Shown piece after piece: positions 1,935 through 47,803 of a stretch of 64,000 bases of DNA (position 1 is the stretch's first letter; the number at the start of each line of letters is the position of its first letter). The stretch lies in the sequence record NC_101842.1; one strand, given 5' to 3'. Origin of the DNA: a phage. Below the pieces are notes generated by a model. That model was not told the DNA's origin, made no database searches, and saw nothing but the letters and a program-made list of their open reading frames with translations. A program made the position numbers and the translations under genes.

Positions 1935-2112
1935 AAGGCAACTATGCAAACGAATGGCATGGCGCGACGGAGTCGCGACATAATATAAAAGCAGTAACCA
2001 TCACCCCCGTGATAGTTTGTCTGCAAACTATTAATCAGATCATAGTTGCCTTGTATTTAGTTAATCATGACATAACAAGCAAGGCAACTATAGATCTGCT
2101 AATAGTTGCCCT
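1935..2112. repeat. two inverted-repeat pairs of AAGGCAACTAT / ATAGTTGCC
   Basis: AAGGCAACTAT at 1935-1945 and 2071-2081; inverse ATAGTTGCC(T/C)T at 2042-2052 and 2102-2112. Confidence 0.7.
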
Positions 2113-2194
2113 GCTTTTATATTATGTCATGCTAATTATAATCAGTGCGATTATTGTCATGTATAATTATTGTCATGCAAACGAATGGCATGGC
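1944..2194. repeat. 20-bp perfect direct repeat ATGCAAACGAATGGCATGGC (two copies)
   Basis: copies at 1944-1963 and 2175-2194; second preceded by tandem ATTATTGTCATG x2. Confidence 0.7.
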
Positions 2195-2204
2195 TGATTA
2201 TCGG

Positions 2205-2296
2205 TGTGTAAACAGTCAATCATGTAAATGGTTAGCATGTGAACAATCAGGAATGTAAACAATCCAGTGTGTAAACTAATAGGTGTGTAAAAGTGT
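2205..2296. repeat. six iteron-like direct repeats of consensus RTGTAAAC
   Basis: gtgtaaac, atgtaaat, atgtgaac, atgtaaac, gtgtaaac, gtgtaaaa spaced about 15 bp. Confidence 0.6.
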
Positions 2297-2854
2297 CATG
2301 TTGTGTCAGTTAGGTCACATTATGTCAGACAAGTTTTTCCCCTCTTTGTCAAGTGCTGCATGAAAAATTTACAAGCTTGTATGGTAGCATTTTTGCGGCC
2401 CTGTTTACATTCAGGAGTGTATGTATAATCCTTGGTGTGTGGGCGTTTAGACGTCTAGACGGTTGGAAGTATGCAGGTCAATATCTAATCTATTGGCTGC
2501 TAACTATATCCCACACAAATGATAAGAAATATAATTGTTATATGCGTAAACTGTAACTCATGTTATCAATCCCTGTATGTATCGCCAGTGGTGCGCATAA
2601 TGGGTATTATGTTAAATTGCCCGTAATGATAACTATTCTCACAATGATAGGTATTCTCATTCACCCCCACAAGATAGGTTGCAAATGTTGTGCCACTGTG
2701 TGAACGGCCTAGCCTATTAATTTGCCTCACTGCCTTGATATTTGAGAATTGTTATAAGAATGAGAAGTATTCCCATTTCGTCCGCCTGGCAGCACTCCTG
2801 TAGGTCAGGTCAAAATCGTGGTAGAATTGGGCCTGTTCAGATATTTCTGGCTGA

Positions 2855-4064
2855 CTCTTCAGGTCTGTGTGGGAAAAGCCAACCTCTCCGGCGGGGCATG
2901 GGGTCATGACGGGAAAATTGCAGGTCAATTAAAAAATTTACGTGGTGTATGAAGCGCTCTTCAGGTAAGGCATGTATTATGGGATGAAACCCTCTTCAGG
3001 CAATGATATTTGTGGGTGTGATATTTGCTGGAAAGCCAGATATGACGGGACTCCCGGCGGGGCAGGGGTAGTACAGACAGGGAAAATATGGAGGATGTGG
3101 TTGGGTAAATTGATCAGGCAGGTAGAGTATGGAATATGTTACAGGTATGTTAAATAGGGAGGCTGAATATCTGTAGGATTTGTGTGTAAAATCAAAGACT
3201 TAAGTGGTGTTGTGGTATTTTCTATAAATAATTCAAGTTTAATAGGTAATATTTGTCTCTATTCGCTTTGTGTGGTAAACAGATTCAGATGAGATTGGTT
3301 TACAAGTGTATACATAATATACAAATTAAAGATACAAGAAACCCCCCTCCCCCTTCGGCTACCATTCACCTTTTCCTCTGACTGGTACTTAAACACTTAT
3401 TCAGACTCTTCAGGTTATCACCCATATATCATATGGCAGTGACTGGTGTCCTCCGGCCCCTCTTTCGTCACCCGTCCGCTTCGCCATGCTAATGCCATAG
3501 CCAATGGTTCGGTTGTTCACCCTGCTCACTCAGGTGTATCTCCATACCCCTTCAAACCGAAGAGAACAGAAAACCCGAATTACTCGGTAAAAGAAAAGAG
3601 AAGAACTTAATTTTATCAGGATAGGCAAGAATGTCAAGGCATGACTGCTCACTAAACAAGCAAACAGTCATGTGTGGGAGGTAAGTGATTGTGGTGGTGG
3701 GAAATTTAGTTGAAAGATGTGCTACAGGTGCGCTTCCAGCACTTTAGCAGGGCAGCTAATTGTGTGTCAGTCCAGCGGTTCATCCTCTACTTCACTGAAA
3801 TCAATGTTCATGGTCTCTTCCCAACCATCGATCTCAGCACAAGAGTGGAGTTCTTTAGGACTTACTCCCAAAGCATCAGCAACAGAGTCCATATTTAACA
3901 CCTCTGGCAGGTATGATTCATCGAATTCAAGGTAAATCAGGCCACGAGTGTTGTCAGCTCCACCAAATATTTCTATCTTCATGAAATCTCCTCTGGAAAT
4001 GAGAGTGTGAACAGGGTTTTATACGTTCCGATGCACAGGAATTATGCACGTTTGCCTCTTCAGG
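2855..4064. repeat. dispersed 9-mer CTCTTCAGG (5 copies) plus duplicated CCGGCGGGGCA(T)GGGG block
   Basis: CTCTTCAGG at 2855, 2957, 2992, 3406, 4056; ccggcggggcatgggg at about 2886 and ccggcggggcagggg at about 3052. Confidence 0.65.
3767..3982 (-). CDS. hypothetical small acidic protein (71 aa)
   Basis: ORF track; N-terminus MKIEIFGG resembles other MK(I/V)E(I/L) small proteins in the array. Confidence 0.4.
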   Translation of the reverse strand: MKIEIFGGADNTRGLIYLEFDESYLPEVLNMDSVADALGVSPKELHSCAEIDGWEETMNIDFSEVEDEPLD

Positions 4065-4103
4065 TCATGCTTTAGCATGAGGAACCTGTGTGGGCTCGGT
4101 GCT

Positions 4104-4316
4104 TCATAGTCTACCACCCCTGAACTCTTCGTGCTCAGGCATAATAGAGAACCAGATATCTACGATGTCCTCCCACGTCAGGTCATCAGCCTCAGGATCT
4201 GTCTGGGACGAAGATGAAGAGTCCTCAGAATATAAGTTTTCCTCTTTAACTGGCTCATCCAAGGGACATATGGTCACTCCTTCGGATGTCTCTTCAGATA
4301 CATGTGTGTTGATCAT
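4104..4316 (-). CDS. hypothetical small acidic protein (70 aa)
   Basis: ORF track; very acidic, Ser-rich. Confidence 0.35.
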   Translation of the reverse strand: MINTHVSEETSEGVTICPLDEPVKEENLYSEDSSSSSQTDPEADDLTWEDIVDIWFSIMPEHEEFRGGRL

Positions 4317-4402
4317 GTTCCACCCGTGAGTATTCCGGCAACAGCCGCTATGGAAGTAATGATCATCAGGATCACCACTAAAACTTCAGACAATGTTCTC
4401 AT
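4313..4402 (-). CDS. putative 29-aa single-pass hydrophobic peptide (MRTLSEVLVVILMIITSIAAVAGILTGGT)
   Basis: hand-translated; ATGA start/stop overlap with ORF 4104-4316; promoter-like TTGACA-17-TAGTAT upstream on minus strand. Confidence 0.3.
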   Translation of the reverse strand: MRTLSEVLVVILMIITSIAAVAGILTGGT

Positions 4403-4618
4403 TGTGTATTCCATATTCTCCAAACTGTGTGGATACTATCACGGTAGCGGTAATGTGTCAACAGAAACGCCGCGAGGGTTTGGTTAAAATCCGAGCGTAT
4501 GGTGATTTGGGTCAAAACGGACGTGCGTTCTCGCTACGCTCGAAAGAGAGATTTGTTTGTAGGAAGCTCTTAAACGCTCTGTAATGAGATTATCTGTCCA
4601 AGGTATGCAATCGTGCAC

Positions 4619-4650
4619 CAGATAAAGAAAAGGACGCCACAGAGCGTCCT
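4619..4650 (-). terminator. rho-independent terminator-like hairpin (minus strand)
   Basis: 7-bp stem aggacgc/gcgtcct; T-rich tract follows on minus strand; after ORF 4675-4986. Confidence 0.45.
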
Positions 4651-40599: not shown

Positions 40600-40950
40600 T
40601 CAGTAGATGTTTTGTTTAATCTCTATTCCAAACTTCTTGAATGAGTCAGCAGCAAGCATAAATTTACGAGCTGCCGATGGATTAGAAGTATGCACGAAAA
40701 TAATCACGTTGTCAATAAGTGGTGGCTTTCCGAATACAAGTTTCTCCTCTAGCGCAGAGAAGCAGTCGTACCCTTCAAGCACTTCACCTAGATCATTGTC
40801 AAAATACCACTCAGATACGCGTCTGTAGAGCTTTCTCTTATCATTAAGAAAATCCATAAACTCAGAAGAATTCTTTAGCCACAGAGCGTCTAGGAGTCCA
40901 TAATCTGACGGATCTCTAAAATCATCAAGCCACACAATCCACTTCTTCAT
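40600..40950 (-). CDS. hypothetical protein (116 aa)
   Basis: ORF track; ATGA overlap with upstream gene. Confidence 0.45.
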   Translation of the reverse strand: MKKWIVWLDDFRDPSDYGLLDALWLKNSSEFMDFLNDKRKLYRRVSEWYFDNDLGEVLEGYDCFSALEEKLVFGKPPLIDNVIIFVHTSNPSAARKFMLAADSFKKFGIEIKQNIY

Positions 40951-41882
40951 TGCATATAGTCCTCGTTGTGGAAATAGCAGTCAAGTATCTCACGGCGTTC
41001 CTGCTCCAGGAGGCAGTTCCATACATCCTCTGTGTAGTTGTTACGAATGAAGTTTACCATGCCGTAAAACTCTTCGTCAACACGTTTAAAGATATCATCA
41101 TCCCAAATCTTCCAAGCTTTACCCCTCATTACGGCCTTTCGTGCCAGATAGTATGGAGACTTGATCTTCAACTGCAGATCATAAGGGTAGTAAGGCTTAC
41201 GAATCATATATCCTTCACCTCTTGTTTCTGCAGCTAACTCTTTTGCATAGCTGAACGGAATTTCACGCACAGTGTGAGGACGTTTTGCACCAAGGTATTT
41301 GGCAATCCCATCTAAAGCGGCTTCTGGTAGCATTATTCCAGAATCATTATATCTGCAACCTATCAAATATGCGCCATGATCTTCCTGAACAATATGCGGA
41401 TCTGAAGGGTGACAAATTTCAAACATGAATGTCATGTTTTCATTGCCCATAACCTTCTTGATAAGATCTAAATTACCGCATTGCTCCTGGATGGTTTCCT
41501 TTGCAAGGTTACAATATGGGGAATCAAGAGACCCGGTTGTTGAGAACAATAGTTCACCTTTATGAGATGACACCACACCAAGGAATCCGTTCTTTTTCTC
41601 TACCGCCGTCACAAGCTTATTGTCAGGCAGGTTGGTGGAGTTTTCTCCCAAGTTAAACACTTTTGTGAAGGGCCATGCCACAACATTTCCTTCATTACCG
41701 ACAACAATGCCTCGGCACTCCAGTAATCGAGGAGACAAATGCCATAAGTTGTTGTAGAATACTTTTCTGGCATATTTATAGATCTTTAACCCAAGATCTG
41801 GGTAATATCTGCTGGTTACAAGACCTTTGTCAACTAGGTCGTCTGCATTAAAATACTTCATCATACGTTCCTCATTTGTCAT
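40947..41882 (-). CDS. RNA ligase, T4 Rnl1-like
   Basis: LSPRLLECRGIVV and KVFNLGEN match T4 Rnl1 LPDALECRGIMF and KFFNLNEN; motif I lysine in VEKKNGFLG. Confidence 0.7.
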   Translation of the reverse strand: MTNEERMMKYFNADDLVDKGLVTSRYYPDLGLKIYKYARKVFYNNLWHLSPRLLECRGIVVGNEGNVVAWPFTKVFNLGENSTNLPDNKLVTAVEKKNGFLGVVSSHKGELLFSTTGSLDSPYCNLAKETIQEQCGNLDLIKKVMGNENMTFMFEICHPSDPHIVQEDHGAYLIGCRYNDSGIMLPEAALDGIAKYLGAKRPHTVREIPFSYAKELAAETRGEGYMIRKPYYPYDLQLKIKSPYYLARKAVMRGKAWKIWDDDIFKRVDEEFYGMVNFIRNNYTEDVWNCLLEQERREILDCYFHNEDYMQ

Positions 41883-41925
41883 TTTGTCCCTTTATCCTGC
41901 CACACAAATAACCCAGTGTCAACAC

Positions 41926-41954
41926 TTGAAATTAACAAAACAGTTAGGTATACT
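41926..41954 (+). promoter_or_regulatory. sigma70-like promoter TTGAAA-17-TATACT
   Basis: consensus-like hexamers, 17-nt spacer, about 30 nt upstream of kinase start. Confidence 0.55.
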
Positions 41955-41982
41955 ATCATTGAAATTAAAACGGAGGGTTACT

Positions 41983-42390
41983 ATGTCTAAAATGCTATAT
42001 ATCGTGCGTGGTCTACCAGGGTCTGGCAAATCAACACTGGCAAATGCGCTATCTTTAGAAGGTCTGTACCCACATTTTGAGAACGACATGTTCTGGTACG
42101 ACGATGACGGCAATTACAACTGGGATGCAAGTAAAGTAACACTTGCAGCAAAATGGTGCAAAGATCACGTAGAAGATATGATGCGTATGGGATACGACCG
42201 TATCGTGGTAAGTAATACGTTTACAAAAGAAAAATACGTGCAAAAATATATTGACATGGCAATCAGCTATGGGTATAGTTATACCGTAATCGTGGTTGAA
42301 AACCGCCACGGTAATAAAAGCATTCATGCTTCAGACGAGGTTGTGGATCGTATGGAGCGCCAGCTTAAAAACTGCATCAAACTTAAATGA
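41983..42390 (+). CDS. polynucleotide 5'-kinase-like P-loop kinase
   Basis: LYIVRGLPGSGKST resembles T4 Pnk kinase N-terminus; start refined to ATG after acggaggg RBS. Confidence 0.65.
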   Translation: MSKMLYIVRGLPGSGKSTLANALSLEGLYPHFENDMFWYDDDGNYNWDASKVTLAAKWCKDHVEDMMRMGYDRIVVSNTFTKEKYVQKYIDMAISYGYSYTVIVVENRHGNKSIHASDEVVDRMERQLKNCIKLK

Positions 42391-42397
42391 GGAATGT

Positions 42398-42952
42398 ATG
42401 AAATACTTTGTAACAAGCGACACACACTTTCTCCACCAGCGGGTCATGGAGTTTGATTCATGTCAAAAACACAGATCTCAATATGATCACAATCTTGACA
42501 GTATGAATGCGGGAATCATCACCAAGTGGAACTCTGTTGTGTCACCTGCAGACACTGTGTTCCACCTGGGAGATATTGCGTGCACTAATGATAAGAATAT
42601 CAACAACTTACTTCCAGATATTCTAAATATGTTGAACGGACATATTATTCTTGTTCGTGGCAACCATGACACAAGGACGACTGTCAGAATTATGAAAGAG
42701 TTCGGTCATGAGGTTGTAGATTATTACGAGCTTCGCCACAACAAGAATTTGATCTGTATGAGCCATTACCAGTTTGCAAAGTGGAACAGAAAGCCTCACG
42801 GATCAGTCCAACTGTTCGGTCATGCTCACGGAACCACACAACAGTTGTTTGGCAGACAGTTTGATGTCGGTTGGGATGTGTGGGGGAGACTCTTACCATT
42901 AGAAGAGGCATACCGTATTGCAATGAGTTTTGCTATTGACAGCGGGGAGTAA
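42398..42952 (+). CDS. calcineurin-like metallophosphoesterase
   Basis: SDTHF, GDIACTN, GNHD, GHAHG motifs; start refined to MKYFVTSD. Confidence 0.7.
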   Translation: MKYFVTSDTHFLHQRVMEFDSCQKHRSQYDHNLDSMNAGIITKWNSVVSPADTVFHLGDIACTNDKNINNLLPDILNMLNGHIILVRGNHDTRTTVRIMKEFGHEVVDYYELRHNKNLICMSHYQFAKWNRKPHGSVQLFGHAHGTTQQLFGRQFDVGWDVWGRLLPLEEAYRIAMSFAIDSGE

Positions 42953-42999
42953 TCCCTGCTATTTTAAAGAAAATTGCCACACAAGGAGAATCAGGAGAT

Positions 43000-43350
43000 A
43001 TGAAAGATGGGGATAAGCTGCTATATCTTAAAGTCCCCCTTGAAATACTATCTATGTCAAAAGTTTTGAATGACACAACTGGGGAGGTTGTTGTTCTTGA
43101 CTTGTATGACAAGATCGTATACTGCTACCTGCACAACTGGTATAAGCTTGGAGGAAGTTCACGCTTCACACCCAGCACAAGGAAAATTGCAGCAGATGTT
43201 GGAATAAAGAAAACAAAAGCAGCAGCGTGCGTTAAAACTTTAGAATGTGCGGGAGTGGTTGAAATATCCACACAAGGGAGAGGTAAAAGATGCACATTTT
43301 CCAAAGTTTTGCCACCAGAAGAAGTTATTCGAATGTCAACAACTGGTTAG
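43000..43350 (+). CDS. small putative HTH DNA-binding protein (116 aa)
   Basis: helix-turn-helix-like segment TRKIAADVGIKKTKAAACVKTLE; tandem palindromic repeats immediately downstream. Confidence 0.4.
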   Translation: MKDGDKLLYLKVPLEILSMSKVLNDTTGEVVVLDLYDKIVYCYLHNWYKLGGSSRFTPSTRKIAADVGIKKTKAAACVKTLECAGVVEISTQGRGKRCTFSKVLPPEEVIRMSTTG

Positions 43351-43425
43351 ACCAGTAAAAACTTAAATATCTGTACTATAAGGATTCGTATGTTTTATGT
43401 TCGCTCTGGAGCAGAGGTTAGTAAC

Positions 43426-43507
43426 TGTCCGTGATACGGACACTACTGTCCGTCACGCGGACACATCTGCCCGTAATACGGACACTAACTGTCCGTGATA
43501 CGGACAC
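43426..43507. repeat. four tandem 18-bp palindromic iterons (TGTCCGT-N-ACGGACAC), period 21-22 bp
   Basis: copies at 43426-43443, 43447-43464, 43468-43485, 43490-43507. Confidence 0.8.
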
Positions 43508-43640
43508 ATAAAGAATATAACTAAAATAACTAAATAATAAAAAATAAAAGATCTAGTACTTATGGTACTAAGTACATATACTTAACTTATGTAGAATATA
43601 CTAGATCCTAAGTACCATGTTTTAAATTTATTACTTACTA
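43508..43640. other. AT-rich tract with short inverted repeats, adjacent to iterons
   Basis: strongly A+T-biased with TAGTAC/GTACTA and CTAAGTAC repeats. Confidence 0.5.
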
Positions 43641-43905
43641 TGGGCAGTGTCGGCCCTTCATTGGCACTCGCCTACGAGGGGCGAGATGCCGGGCCTCTTT
43701 GGTGCACACAATAACAGAAGTTCATACATACAGGTCTGTTAACATGTGTGGGAGCGAAGCGATAGCGCAGGCCAAAGGCCGAGCACTGATGTGGACCACC
43801 GACGAAAGCTTGCCAGCGCCGTAAGGAGTCGGTTGAGAGTCTCCCGCGCGAGCTTGGATGAAGTTTATGTGTGGAAACTGACAAGAAGGCCCCTAAATCG
43901 CTCCA
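43640..43905 (+). ncRNA. candidate structured non-coding RNA (G+C-rich island with nested stems); strand unknown
   Basis: G+C-rich relative to flanks; nested pairings ggccc/gggcc, ggca/tgcc, ctcgcc/ggcgag at about 43650-43695; only ORF is an antisense low-complexity frame. Confidence 0.25.
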
Positions 43906-44010
43906 CAGCTATATAAACTATACCAGGTAATGCAATCGCACCAGTTTGGTAGAAAAGCTCGTTACAAAGCGATACAGTGAGTTTTTCTATAACTTGAAGA
44001 GGAGGCAGCT

Positions 44011-44589
44011 ATGGGTTCACGCAAAGATGACCGTGAAAAGATTGCAAAACGTTATCAGAATGAAGAACAGATGGAGAAAACTTTCAAGTGGAAGCCCGGT
44101 TTCCAGCGTAATCATTCTAACGCTCGTGATCGTAAGCATCCGGATAAGTGGCTAACACCGCCAAATGATGGCATGCAGGTTGGGGATGAGAAGGAGATGT
44201 CGCCTGGAAAAGATGGCAACTACATTCGCACTAAGGACGCTGGTCCAAAGGATGACAGCTATCTTGTAGATAAGGTTCTTGATGGTATCAATGTAGATGT
44301 TGACACTGCACGAAACCTTTTTCTTGGGTGGTATCGCACAGGTTTTTTCGACATCAAGGCTATTCGTCGTGTTTGTGATATTAAAAAGTCTGCATATGAT
44401 GACGACTCGTTACATCGCACCCTGAGACAATATTCAGAAAGATATGGTCATCCGGTTATCACTCTTGACGATGTTAACGAAGTGATGTATCATGCAGAGG
44501 TTGTTGCAGGAAGATTTGGTGATGCATATCTTGATATCCTTTCTGCAAAGGATGAGGTAATGTTAAATAAGATTTACTATGAACGCTGA
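44011..44589 (+). CDS. hypothetical protein (192 aa)
   Basis: ORF track; strong RBS gaggagg. Confidence 0.5.
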   Translation: MGSRKDDREKIAKRYQNEEQMEKTFKWKPGFQRNHSNARDRKHPDKWLTPPNDGMQVGDEKEMSPGKDGNYIRTKDAGPKDDSYLVDKVLDGINVDVDTARNLFLGWYRTGFFDIKAIRRVCDIKKSAYDDDSLHRTLRQYSERYGHPVITLDDVNEVMYHAEVVAGRFGDAYLDILSAKDEVMLNKIYYER

Positions 44590-44788
44590 GGAGCGCTTAA
44601 TGAACAACCCGGTAGCAAAGAACTGTAATAAGTTCAACAAGTCTGCAATTCACACTGACAGGAAAAAGAGCTGGTCTCCTGACATTGACGAGGAGCTTGA
44701 GAGTTACTTTGAAGACCTGGTCACTAATGCAGATGAGGTTGCGATTAAAGAATACGCAGACAGGAAGGATAAGGCCGGAATCTGTTGA
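44579..44788 (+). CDS. hypothetical small protein (69 aa)
   Basis: ORF track. Confidence 0.4.
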   Translation: MNAEERLMNNPVAKNCNKFNKSAIHTDRKKSWSPDIDEELESYFEDLVTNADEVAIKEYADRKDKAGIC

Positions 44789-44864
44789 CAAAAATAGTGT
44801 TACCTGATAAGATCTGCAATATGATGTGATGCAATTTTAACTTACGAGGTCTACAGGTAATGCT

Positions 44865-45107
44865 ATGTTTAAGGTTAAGCTCGTTTTTCGTTCCATGAAT
44901 GAGGATTATTTAGAAGATGAAGGTGAATTTCGTGCACTGGATGATGCAATAGATTTTGCCAACGACTTAGCTTGTATGAATACGGGTTATGGGCTATGCT
45001 GTTGGGATGGTGGTGTTCAGATCGGTGATAGCAAGATCTTCTACTTCTACCCTGAGCCTGATAACAAACAAATTAAGTATGTTTTATTTATTTGTGCTTT
45101 ACAATGA
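44865..45107 (+). CDS. hypothetical small protein (80 aa)
   Basis: ORF track. Confidence 0.4.
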   Translation: MFKVKLVFRSMNEDYLEDEGEFRALDDAIDFANDLACMNTGYGLCCWDGGVQIGDSKIFYFYPEPDNKQIKYVLFICALQ

Positions 45108-46355: not shown

Positions 46356-46452
46356 GCTAGGTAAGCCCTTTGGCAAGGGCGAGGATTTTTAATCCTGAAA
46401 ATAGACGAGGTAGTCGTTGAATACATAGGTGGTTCGATTCCATCACCTAGCA
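46356..46452 (+). tRNA. atypical tRNA-like element (97 nt)
   Basis: perfect 7-bp acceptor gctaggt/acctagc, canonical T-arm, D-arm-like hairpin, but irregular anticodon arm and about 29-nt variable region; no CCA. Confidence 0.4.
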
Positions 46453-46459
46453 CCTTTTT

Positions 46460-47519: not shown

Positions 47520-47803
47520 GAGTTGCTACACTGTTTATTGTGTGCTTGTTATTATGTGGGTGTGCAACCAGCGTTGAGAGAGAATACAAGATTGACCCTC
47601 CGGATGTAGGAAGGTTGATTGTTAAACCCCCGGAAGGTGCCATGAAACCACCTGCTAAAGCTATGCCTTTGAAGAAAGGTGCGCCAGATGCAGTGAATTC
47701 TGGCATTATGAGGGATAATAATCTGTCTTGTAGCAATGATAGAGCTAAATTGATCATTTTGCAAGACTATATTAGAACACTGTTTCCAAAGGAGAGAGGT
47801 TAA
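47516..47803 (+). CDS. o-spanin-like outer-membrane lipoprotein (Pro-rich)
   Basis: signal with LLLCGC lipobox-like site, Pro-rich mature region. Confidence 0.55.
   Translation: MRVATLFIVCLLLCGCATSVEREYKIDPPDVGRLIVKPPEGAMKPPAKAMPLKKGAPDAVNSGIMRDNNLSCSNDRAKLIILQDYIRTLFPKERG

Follow-up and report, generated by a model that had tools for sequence, protein, structure and literature searches.

The 64,000-nucleotide (nt) stretch of NC_101842.1 analysed here, referred to throughout as the window, comes from an rV5-like Vequintavirus, a myophage of Escherichia coli, and carries between 43000 and 43640 a small gene for a winged-helix protein, four tandem palindromic repeats (iterons) and a tract of A+T-rich DNA (Table 1). 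An earlier note, made from the sequence alone, had read this arrangement as a candidate replication origin or partition site. More than 110 Vequintavirus (rV5-like) genomes match the 1.2 kb around the locus at 98-99.8 % identity, and window position x corresponds approximately to 108,658 - x on the opposite strand of the rV5 reference genome (NC_011041; 137,947 bp). The ORF at 43000-43350 encodes 116 amino acids (aa) and the repeats begin 71 bases past its stop codon, so the helix-turn-helix protein and adjoining repeats described in the note are indeed present.

Table 1. Coordinates, in the window, of the winged-helix gene and the features around it
Feature	Position	Strand	Remarks
Sigma-70-like promoter TTGACA-18-TATTTT with TG	42936-42965	+	Found by consensus scan; just upstream of the winged-helix gene
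Winged-helix gene (rV5 ORF79), 116 aa	43000-43350	+	DNA-binding domain like DUF6945 and the PLE RepA N-terminal domain, without a C-terminal domain
Variable spacer, 71 bp, from stop codon to repeats	43351-43421		Evolves at an approximately neutral rate
Iteron array, four 21-22-bp units	43422-43507		Each unit contains the palindrome TGTCCGT-N3-ACGGACA
A+T-rich tract, 133 bp, 80.5 % A+T	43508-43640		Least stable duplex; candidate DNA-unwinding element
Perfect 9-bp inverted repeat GATCTAGTA / TACTAGATC	43550-43558 / 43599-43607		Encloses further short dyads; invariant in 11 strains
GC-richer non-coding stretch, 370 bp	43641-44010		Between the A+T-rich tract and the next gene; nucleotide diversity 0.063-0.075

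The palindrome array and the A+T-rich tract

Read as 22-bp units, the four repeats start at 43422, 43443, 43464 and 43486, and the palindromes within them occupy 43426-43442, 43447-43463, 43468-43484 and 43490-43506. The earlier note was right about four tandem copies at 21-22-bp spacing but not about the repeat itself, which it gave as an 18-bp palindrome (TGTCCGT-N-ACGGACAC); the dyad is 7+3+7 = 17 bp. The palindrome centres are 21, 21 and 22 bp apart, or 2.0-2.1 helical turns, which puts the iterons on the same face of the helix as the note had supposed, and the half-site centres within each palindrome are separated by 10 bp, one helical turn. Units 1 and 4 share an exactly repeated 22-mer. 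The array thus has the form of the directly repeated semi-palindromic iterons found at the origins of RepA_N and PLE RepA proteins, with four units and 7-bp inverted arms. When the window was scanned with the palindrome pattern at up to two mismatches, 11 matches were found against 0.65 expected (the largest value in shuffled sequence was 4), and eight of the 11 are the four array sites read on both strands. The array occurs only here in the rV5 genome, which has no other site at one mismatch or fewer, and a few GenBank records mark an unexplained 'repeat_region'.

The adjoining A+T-rich DNA, about 130 bp in the earlier note, contains two tandem ATAACTAAA 9-mers (43517-43534), GATC sites at 43550 and 43604, and short inverted repeats of the kind the note had reported, the 9-bp pair of Table 1 among them. 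Duplex stability was calculated as nearest-neighbour free energy at 60-, 100- and 130-bp scales, and the tract is the minimum of the window (z 5.2-5.5; next segment, 3.7) and also of the entire rV5 genome, where it reaches z 4.65, 5.56 and 5.95 at the three scales and the best site elsewhere reaches 3.85, 3.96 and 4.13. Initiator-type sites in helical phase beside an A+T-rich candidate unwinding element, as expected of an iteron origin, are present. The occurrence of at least two GATC sites in a tract of this composition (P approximately 0.018) is a weaker point in favour of an origin. The inverted repeats of the tract, folded as single-stranded DNA, are no better than shuffled sequence (z -1.3) and give no special cruciform or hairpin signal.

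Both elements are conserved beyond what their surroundings would suggest. In an alignment of eleven distinct Vequintavirus sequences, extending down to 87 % protein identity, nucleotide diversity is 0.125-0.16 at third codon positions of the four flanking genes and 0.15 in the spacer that precedes the repeats, but only 0.028 in the iteron array and 0.034 in the A+T-rich tract, values lower by a factor of 4-5 than those at third codon positions. Both are under purifying selection, and the tract is conserved in sequence and not merely in composition. Within the iterons CTG.CCG..A..CGGACAC is invariant over all copies and strains, and variation is confined to the central spacer and to T/C transitions in the left half-site, a pattern that, to judge from the alignment, is the signature of a protein-binding site.

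The winged-helix protein and its relatives

The 116-aa protein belongs to a narrow family, with a HMMER search of 1.84 billion representative proteins returning ten matches. Its Pfam matches are all below threshold, DUF6945 scoring 24.9 bits against a cut-off of 28 and HTH_36 also falling short, but PHROG 12838, a 'replication initiation protein' family, matches with an E-value of 8.5e-80. The weaker PHROG matches are to other initiator families, the longer of whose profiles are matched within their N-terminal half, and the RefSeq label of the gene is already 'replication initiation protein', by transfer from PHROG. A sequence search of the PDB gave a single significant match, 4RO3 (E-value 7.4e-6), which is the N-terminal domain of RepA from the Vibrio cholerae satellite PLE (PMC7145576). 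The AlphaFold2 model (pLDDT 80) consists of a short beta-hairpin followed by a winged helix in a single domain, and 4RO3 is also its top Foldseek match (E-value 2.4e-5, TM-score 0.68), followed by the N-terminal domains of staphylococcal RepA proteins (4PQL, 4PT7 and 5KBJ). Viral structure matches include ICP1 ORF88 and several stand-alone phage proteins of 105-136 aa. By sequence and by fold the protein is thus placed in the PLE-RepA-type (DUF6945) family of origin-binding domains exemplified by 4RO3, and it appears to be a stand-alone copy of an iteron-binding initiator domain without the C-terminal domain. There is no match to Pfam RepA_N (PF06970), and similarity to RepA_N folds is no stronger than similarity to generic winged-helix regulators.

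The 192-aa protein encoded downstream was considered as a split-off initiator C-terminal domain and rejected, since a 50 %-identical homologue lies in a DNA ligase/exonuclease cluster that has neither a winged-helix gene nor repeats. We note also that the winged-helix gene contains, in its 3' part (AAATATCCACACAAGGGAGAGGTAAAAGATG, 43262-43292), an imperfect copy of its own ribosome-binding and start region (AAATTGCCACACAAGGAGA...ATGAAAGATG, 42971-43009); this copy is not in frame, and a 22-codon ORF that follows it ends at 43358.

The relationship to PLE is informative since that system has been studied experimentally. Barth et al. showed that full-length RepA shifts the semi-palindromic iterons of the PLE non-coding region in electrophoretic mobility shift assays and that the iterons are required for replication (PMC7145576). 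In both PLE and rV5 semi-palindromic direct repeats lie in a non-coding region beside the gene, with binding and origin function established by experiment in PLE, and PLE replication requires a phage SF1B helicase, while rV5 encodes a PIF1/RecD-like SF1B helicase. The differences are that PLE RepA has a C-terminal domain where the rV5 protein is the N-terminal domain alone, that PLE has three iterons with 13-bp sub-repeats around an A-tract where rV5 has four sites with 7-bp arms and a 3-bp spacer, and that PLE is a satellite borrowing a replisome whereas rV5 is a 137-kb lytic phage with its own. The staphylococcal RepA_N initiators (pSK41 and pTZ2162; 4PQL, 4PT7, 4PTA and 5KBJ) likewise differ in having a host-specific C-terminal domain that is absent from the rV5 protein, and their iterons, unlike those of rV5, are reportedly located inside the rep coding sequence (the account is that of Weaver and colleagues in 2009).

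A homologous domain in ICP1 Odn directs a nuclease to the same PLE origin iterons (PMC8263062). Here the likeness is that one DNA-binding domain moves between elements as a stand-alone module of iteron specificity, ICP1 ORF88 being among the structural matches, and the difference is that Odn, with its T5orf172 nuclease, cuts a foreign origin, whereas the rV5 protein is non-catalytic and has its sites in its own genome. Satellite RepA and Odn being the nearest characterized relatives, the locus could be imagined as a conflict module, an Odn without the nuclease, with the initiator domain and its sites directed against a satellite or competitor, whose origin they would block, titrate or mimic, and not serving to replicate the phage. 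Domain chimeras with a GIY-YIG nuclease (in metagenomes) or a T5orf172 nuclease (beside the Seunavirus repeats described below) do exist. However, the cognate sites are in the phage itself and adjoin the gene, and searches for the array found no match in 5,426 complete E. coli genomes or in one genome per GTDB species, and among 72,556 plasmids the sole match was a phage genome that had been filed as one. We think such a role improbable. One of the chimeras, a distant metagenomic relative of 228 aa, has a GIY-YIG nuclease fused to a C-terminal DUF6945 domain and so resembles Odn with the order of domains reversed.

In other genera of the Vequintavirinae the module is not at the syntenic position beside the phosphoesterase gene, and homologues were found at their divergent promoter regions. 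Those of the Henunavirus Erwinia phage pEp_SNUABM_01 (107 aa) and the Mydovirus Klebsiella phage DP (105 aa) are related to the window protein with an hhalign probability of 97.4 % (E-value 1e-11). Both exceed the Pfam DUF6945 cut-off. Both also align with PHROG 8102 ('replication initiation protein') over positions 9-113 of its 337, and 'Replication initiation O-like' PHROGs match them as well (E-values 1e-7 to 4e-4), though not the window protein. Salmonella phage SSE121, a Seunavirus, has at the equivalent place an unannotated winged-helix ORF of 120 aa (sequence L009, 1782-2144, minus strand) with weak family matches only. Each of these genes is accompanied by repeats of its own: TGCTCAA-N-TTGAGCA sites about 23 bp apart in Henunavirus and Mydovirus, the second copy being degenerate in both, and two ATTCCC-N4-GGGAAT sites 24 bp apart in Seunavirus, with a third, degenerate copy further upstream. 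In all three genera the repeats adjoin a 60-bp tract of 84-89 % A+T with AGATCT/GATC motifs, after which comes a TCATAGAGYCRGTG-like motif that the genera share. The Henunavirus tract, like that of rV5, is the stability minimum of its genome of 147 kb (z 5.6; next segment, 4.4), in which the perfect palindrome is nearly unique, the adjacent degenerate copy having three mismatches and one other site, at 101,696, having one.

The linkage of gene and repeats is kept although their relative order and orientation differ among the genera, and protein and repeat sequence change together while the architecture is retained. We regard this cross-genus comparison as the strongest evidence of the analysis. 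No clear repeat arrays are present near the gene of a metagenomic 182-aa homologue or of Pseudaeromonas phage KLEP7, and the architecture is therefore shown only within the Vequintavirinae; a scan of IMG/VR with the protein alignment yielded no confirmed relatives. Beside the Seunavirus repeats lies a gene for a 186-aa protein (L009, 1213-1773, minus strand) in which a winged helix is joined to a T5orf172/endonuclease domain, an Odn-like architecture.

Origin and operator readings

With modest confidence we consider the locus a probable origin-like module of the iteron type, at which, most likely, vegetative replication of the rV5-like phages starts, whether as their only origin or as one of several. 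This is supported, though not proven, by the initiator-domain family of the protein, the unique in-phase sites, the most meltable DNA of the genome adjoining them, purifying selection and the architecture common to several genera.

The closest textbook geometry is that of phage lambda. Ori-lambda consists of four imperfect inverted-repeat iterons of 19 bp with an A+T-rich tract on one side and is activated by transcription, and its minimal unwinding unit is two iterons and the tract (PMC7466680). The rV5 locus likewise has four inverted-repeat iterons and a one-sided A+T-rich tract, in both phages the sites lie in the transcription unit of the initiator or its counterpart, and the two-iteron minimum is paralleled by the two sites of Henunavirus and the one clear and one degenerate site of Mydovirus. 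On the other hand, the lambda origin is inside gene O, the C-terminal domain of O recruits P-DnaB, the host replisome is used, and the O and rV5 protein families are only weakly related. Iteron plasmids of the P1 oriR type combine an A+T-rich region containing GATC repeats, iterons and a rep gene whose promoter is under iteron control, and the Mydovirus and Henunavirus loci show a similar A+T/GATC region, iterons and gene order. P1-type origins also contain DnaA boxes, depend on host DnaA and DnaB, and employ a Rep protein with two winged-helix domains, whereas the rV5 locus has no DnaA-box cluster.

A sequence of events can be proposed in which the 116-aa protein, by family and fold a stand-alone origin-binding domain like that at the N-terminus of PLE RepA, would bind as dimers to the four dyad-symmetric sites, all on one helix face, as homology and site geometry suggest. 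The resulting array of protein and DNA may bend or stress the duplex and so promote opening of the adjacent unstable tract. The phage replisome (gp4-like primase-helicase, T7-like polymerase and PIF1/RecD-like SF1B helicase) could then load via the melted DNA; since the protein lacks a recruiting C-terminal domain, loading would have to depend on the melted DNA itself, perhaps aided by transcription through the region. A candidate promoter for such transcription precedes the gene (Table 1); its position corresponds to that of promoter P76 in the annotation of rV5. Scans revealed no terminator-like sites in 41500-45000, and neither a sigma-70-like promoter on either strand (also in Table S4 of rV5) nor an intrinsic terminator in 43351-44010. 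In the absence of a terminator after the winged-helix gene, read-through from this promoter probably carries transcription across the repeats and the A+T-rich tract.

Several observations weigh against an origin. The weakest link is the absence of a recruiting domain such as those of the RepA_N proteins and lambda O: the ORF stops at residue 116, short of any C-terminal domain like that of RepA_N proteins or PLE RepA, and neither the ORF nor its single-domain model contains a helicase- or loader-recruiting domain. A phage with a T7-type replisome need not have a dedicated initiator, since transcripts can serve to start its replication. There is no DnaA-box cluster at the locus, the 39 DnaA-box-like 9-mers of the window being scattered and only single one-mismatch sites lying inside the gene, and no IHF site, the nearest consensus being at 42598, although such host-factor sites are not universal in phage origins. 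Cumulative GC skew was discarded as a guide to the origin: in rV5 its minimum (66,689) falls 1.5 kb from the repeats, at the divergent transcription switch, and was given no weight because skew tracks the direction of transcription in rV5; moreover, the global minimum of Henunavirus lies elsewhere. The rV5 genome paper of 2013 did not locate the origin and obtained only transcription effects from skew analysis (PMC3606486). The searchable literature offers no experiment on binding, marker frequency or origin function in any phage of the Vequintavirinae, nor does it describe an origin, iterons or DUF6945 for rV5-like phages. Finally, in Mydovirus and Henunavirus the repeats are located between a strong consensus-like sigma-70 promoter, directed through the A+T-rich tract and the repeats, and the start of the winged-helix gene, which heads an operon with ribose-phosphate pyrophosphokinase (Prs) and nicotinamide phosphoribosyltransferase (NAMPT) genes, a layout that fits a plain autoregulated repressor equally well.

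This last arrangement is an argument for the principal alternative, that the palindromes are the operator array of a winged-helix transcription regulator (an autoregulator or roadblock separating the upstream early genes from those downstream, or the activator of an unrecognized promoter in the A+T-rich tract) with no role in the start of replication. Apart from its match to 4RO3 the fold cannot be distinguished from MarR-, CRP- or LexA-type regulators, 'putative transcriptional regulator' is the label in many GenBank records, and with no terminator between the gene and those downstream a bound array could act as a roadblock. Operator sites are expected to overlap or directly follow the promoter that they regulate, and in Mydovirus and Henunavirus, where the gene leads an NAD-salvage operon, they do lie between promoter and gene. 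In the window they do not: the repeats are downstream of the stop codon and therefore cannot repress the gene's own promoter, and the scan found no sigma-70-like promoter in the spacer, array, A+T-rich tract or GC-richer stretch. The module persists in rV5, with four sites instead of two, although Prs and NAMPT genes are lacking there. An operator also leaves unexplained why the flanking tract is the stability minimum of the genome in two distant genera and is as conserved as the sites, and four in-phase sites beside such a tract is the layout of a lambda-type origin (PMC7466680). A purely regulatory array is a real possibility but, in our judgement, the less likely one; the lack of metabolic genes in Vequintavirus, the position of the repeats downstream and away from promoters, the doubling of the sites and the retention of the tract all argue that regulation alone is not the function. 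The origin and transcriptional readings are not mutually exclusive, and since the Mydovirus and Henunavirus sites lie in the gene leader, the protein probably controls its own expression as well, in the manner of plasmid Rep proteins.

Genome setting and implications for rV5-like phages

Left of approximately 41.9 kb the window genes are on the minus strand and include RNA ligase, Sir2, DNA ligase and nucleotide metabolism functions. On the right, plus-strand genes encode in order a polynucleotide-kinase-like ATPase (AAA_33), a metallophosphoesterase, the 116-aa protein and, beyond the non-coding stretch, the 192-aa protein, followed by small ORFs, seven tRNA genes, spanins, the large terminase and structural proteins. 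The replisome genes of rV5 (T7-like DNA polymerase, gp4-like primase-helicase and PIF1/RecD-like SF1B helicase) are elsewhere in the genome. We note that a T4 Rnl1-type RNA ligase, the AAA_33 ATPase and the metallophosphoesterase constitute an RNA-repair-like set (40947-42952), with the Sir2 gene adjoining, that flanks the divergent promoter region a few kb from the tRNA cluster. One tRNA-like gene of 99 nt (46356-46454) is assigned a four-base anticodon (atcc) by ARAGORN, scores only 35.5 bits with the Rfam tRNA model, and is named tRNA-Lys or tRNA-OTHER depending on the GenBank record.

The GC-richer stretch that follows the A+T-rich tract is about as conserved as coding DNA, yet has no 3-base periodicity. 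Its start (CTATGGGCAGTGTCGG) is, by eye, loosely like the motif that follows the tract in the three other genera. Rfam searches of the whole window at gathering thresholds, and of 43300-44100 at E-values up to 10, gave only tRNAs and noise, and the RNA fold of 43636-43990 is unconvincing as a structured RNA on either strand (z -1.6 and -1.4). The rV5 record annotates a 56-aa ORF78 inside this stretch that is absent from the annotation of most other records. A second region of possible interest is a 2.6-kb block without annotated genes at approximately 2040-4645 (rV5 104013-106618), between convergent transcription units, which is the 'non-coding' box of the rV5 paper. Within it are several inverted repeats, a CTCTTCAGG-type motif in at least six copies, and the segments that rank second in the genome for low stability. 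The block may be a further cis-acting region, for instance a terminus or a second origin, or may correspond to a non-coding RNA.

The position of the terminase gene bears on whether the locus might instead be a packaging initiation (pac) site bound by a small terminase-like DNA-binding protein. The rV5-like phages are reported to be circularly permuted headful packagers and have no annotated small terminase subunit, GenBank record A141 (MG065672) opens exactly at the first base of the array, and two Logan metagenomic contigs end at positions equivalent to 43463 and 43518, in or just after it. However, the large terminase gene starts at 47803, 4.3 kb from the repeats, with the tRNA cluster and spanin genes between; the fold and family are those of an initiator or regulator winged helix, and no terminase small-subunit family is among the Pfam and PHROG matches or the listed structure matches. 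We rejected the record and contig ends as physical genome termini because the 22-mer repeated in units 1 and 4 would break assembly graphs, which is the simpler explanation, and other records of the series open elsewhere. A pac site therefore seems very improbable. Eighteen 'UNVERIFIED Campylobacter phage' records (MG0656xx), A141 among them, are, incidentally, rV5-like E. coli phage genomes.

The earlier note's alternative of a partition site, a plasmid-like centromere with its binding protein, fares worse than its origin, which several independent computational lines support. Tandem in-phase repeats adjoining a small DNA-binding protein would suit a centromere, and one rV5-like genome has been deposited as a circular 137.5-kb E. 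coli 'plasmid'. A parABS-like system, though, has an adjacent ATPase and a ParB or ribbon-helix-helix protein, whereas here there is no ParA- or ParM-type ATPase nearby, the neighbours being the AAA_33 polynucleotide-kinase-like ATPase, the metallophosphoesterase and the 192-aa protein, and the fold is a winged helix. Furthermore, the phage is lytic, its annotation shows no lysogeny module, and an A+T-rich tract of extreme instability is not a centromere feature; of the readings considered this is the one to which we give least credence. The 'plasmid' in question (CP057073.1, pRHB39-C03_2; 137,565 bp), from a cattle isolate of E. coli, is an rV5-like genome with a 100 % identical repeat array, which suggests a phage carried along with the isolate, in a carrier state or as contamination.

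Returning to the origin reading, the known kind to which the locus would belong is the iteron origin with a winged-helix initiator; what is new is a protein consisting of the DNA-binding domain only, in a large lytic phage with its own T7-type replisome, forming a cassette that swaps specificity across a subfamily and is related to satellite RepA and Odn. More tentatively, and with a good deal of doubt, we propose a Vequintavirinae class of origins in which a DNA-binding-domain-only protein of approximately 105-120 aa would mark and destabilize a cassette of iterons and unwinding element. Without a recruiting domain, replisome entry would occur via transcription and the phage SF1B and gp4-like helicases, the cassette and protein would co-evolve as a swappable specificity pair across genera, and their ancestry would be common with the PLE RepA and Odn modules.

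Phages of the rV5 type have been isolated widely and serve in cocktails for E. coli biocontrol and therapy, but the site at which their replication begins has never been mapped. The locus described here offers a precise 220-bp candidate with a named putative binding protein that can be tested directly. If it is an origin, the DNA-binding domain of an initiator alone can define one in a large lytic phage with a T7-type replisome, and phage origins would have an evolutionary connection with two modules of the arms race between ICP1 and PLE, the RepA of the satellite and the anti-satellite Odn. It would also provide an engineering handle, for origin plasmids, replication-dependent reporters and host-range-independent amplification.

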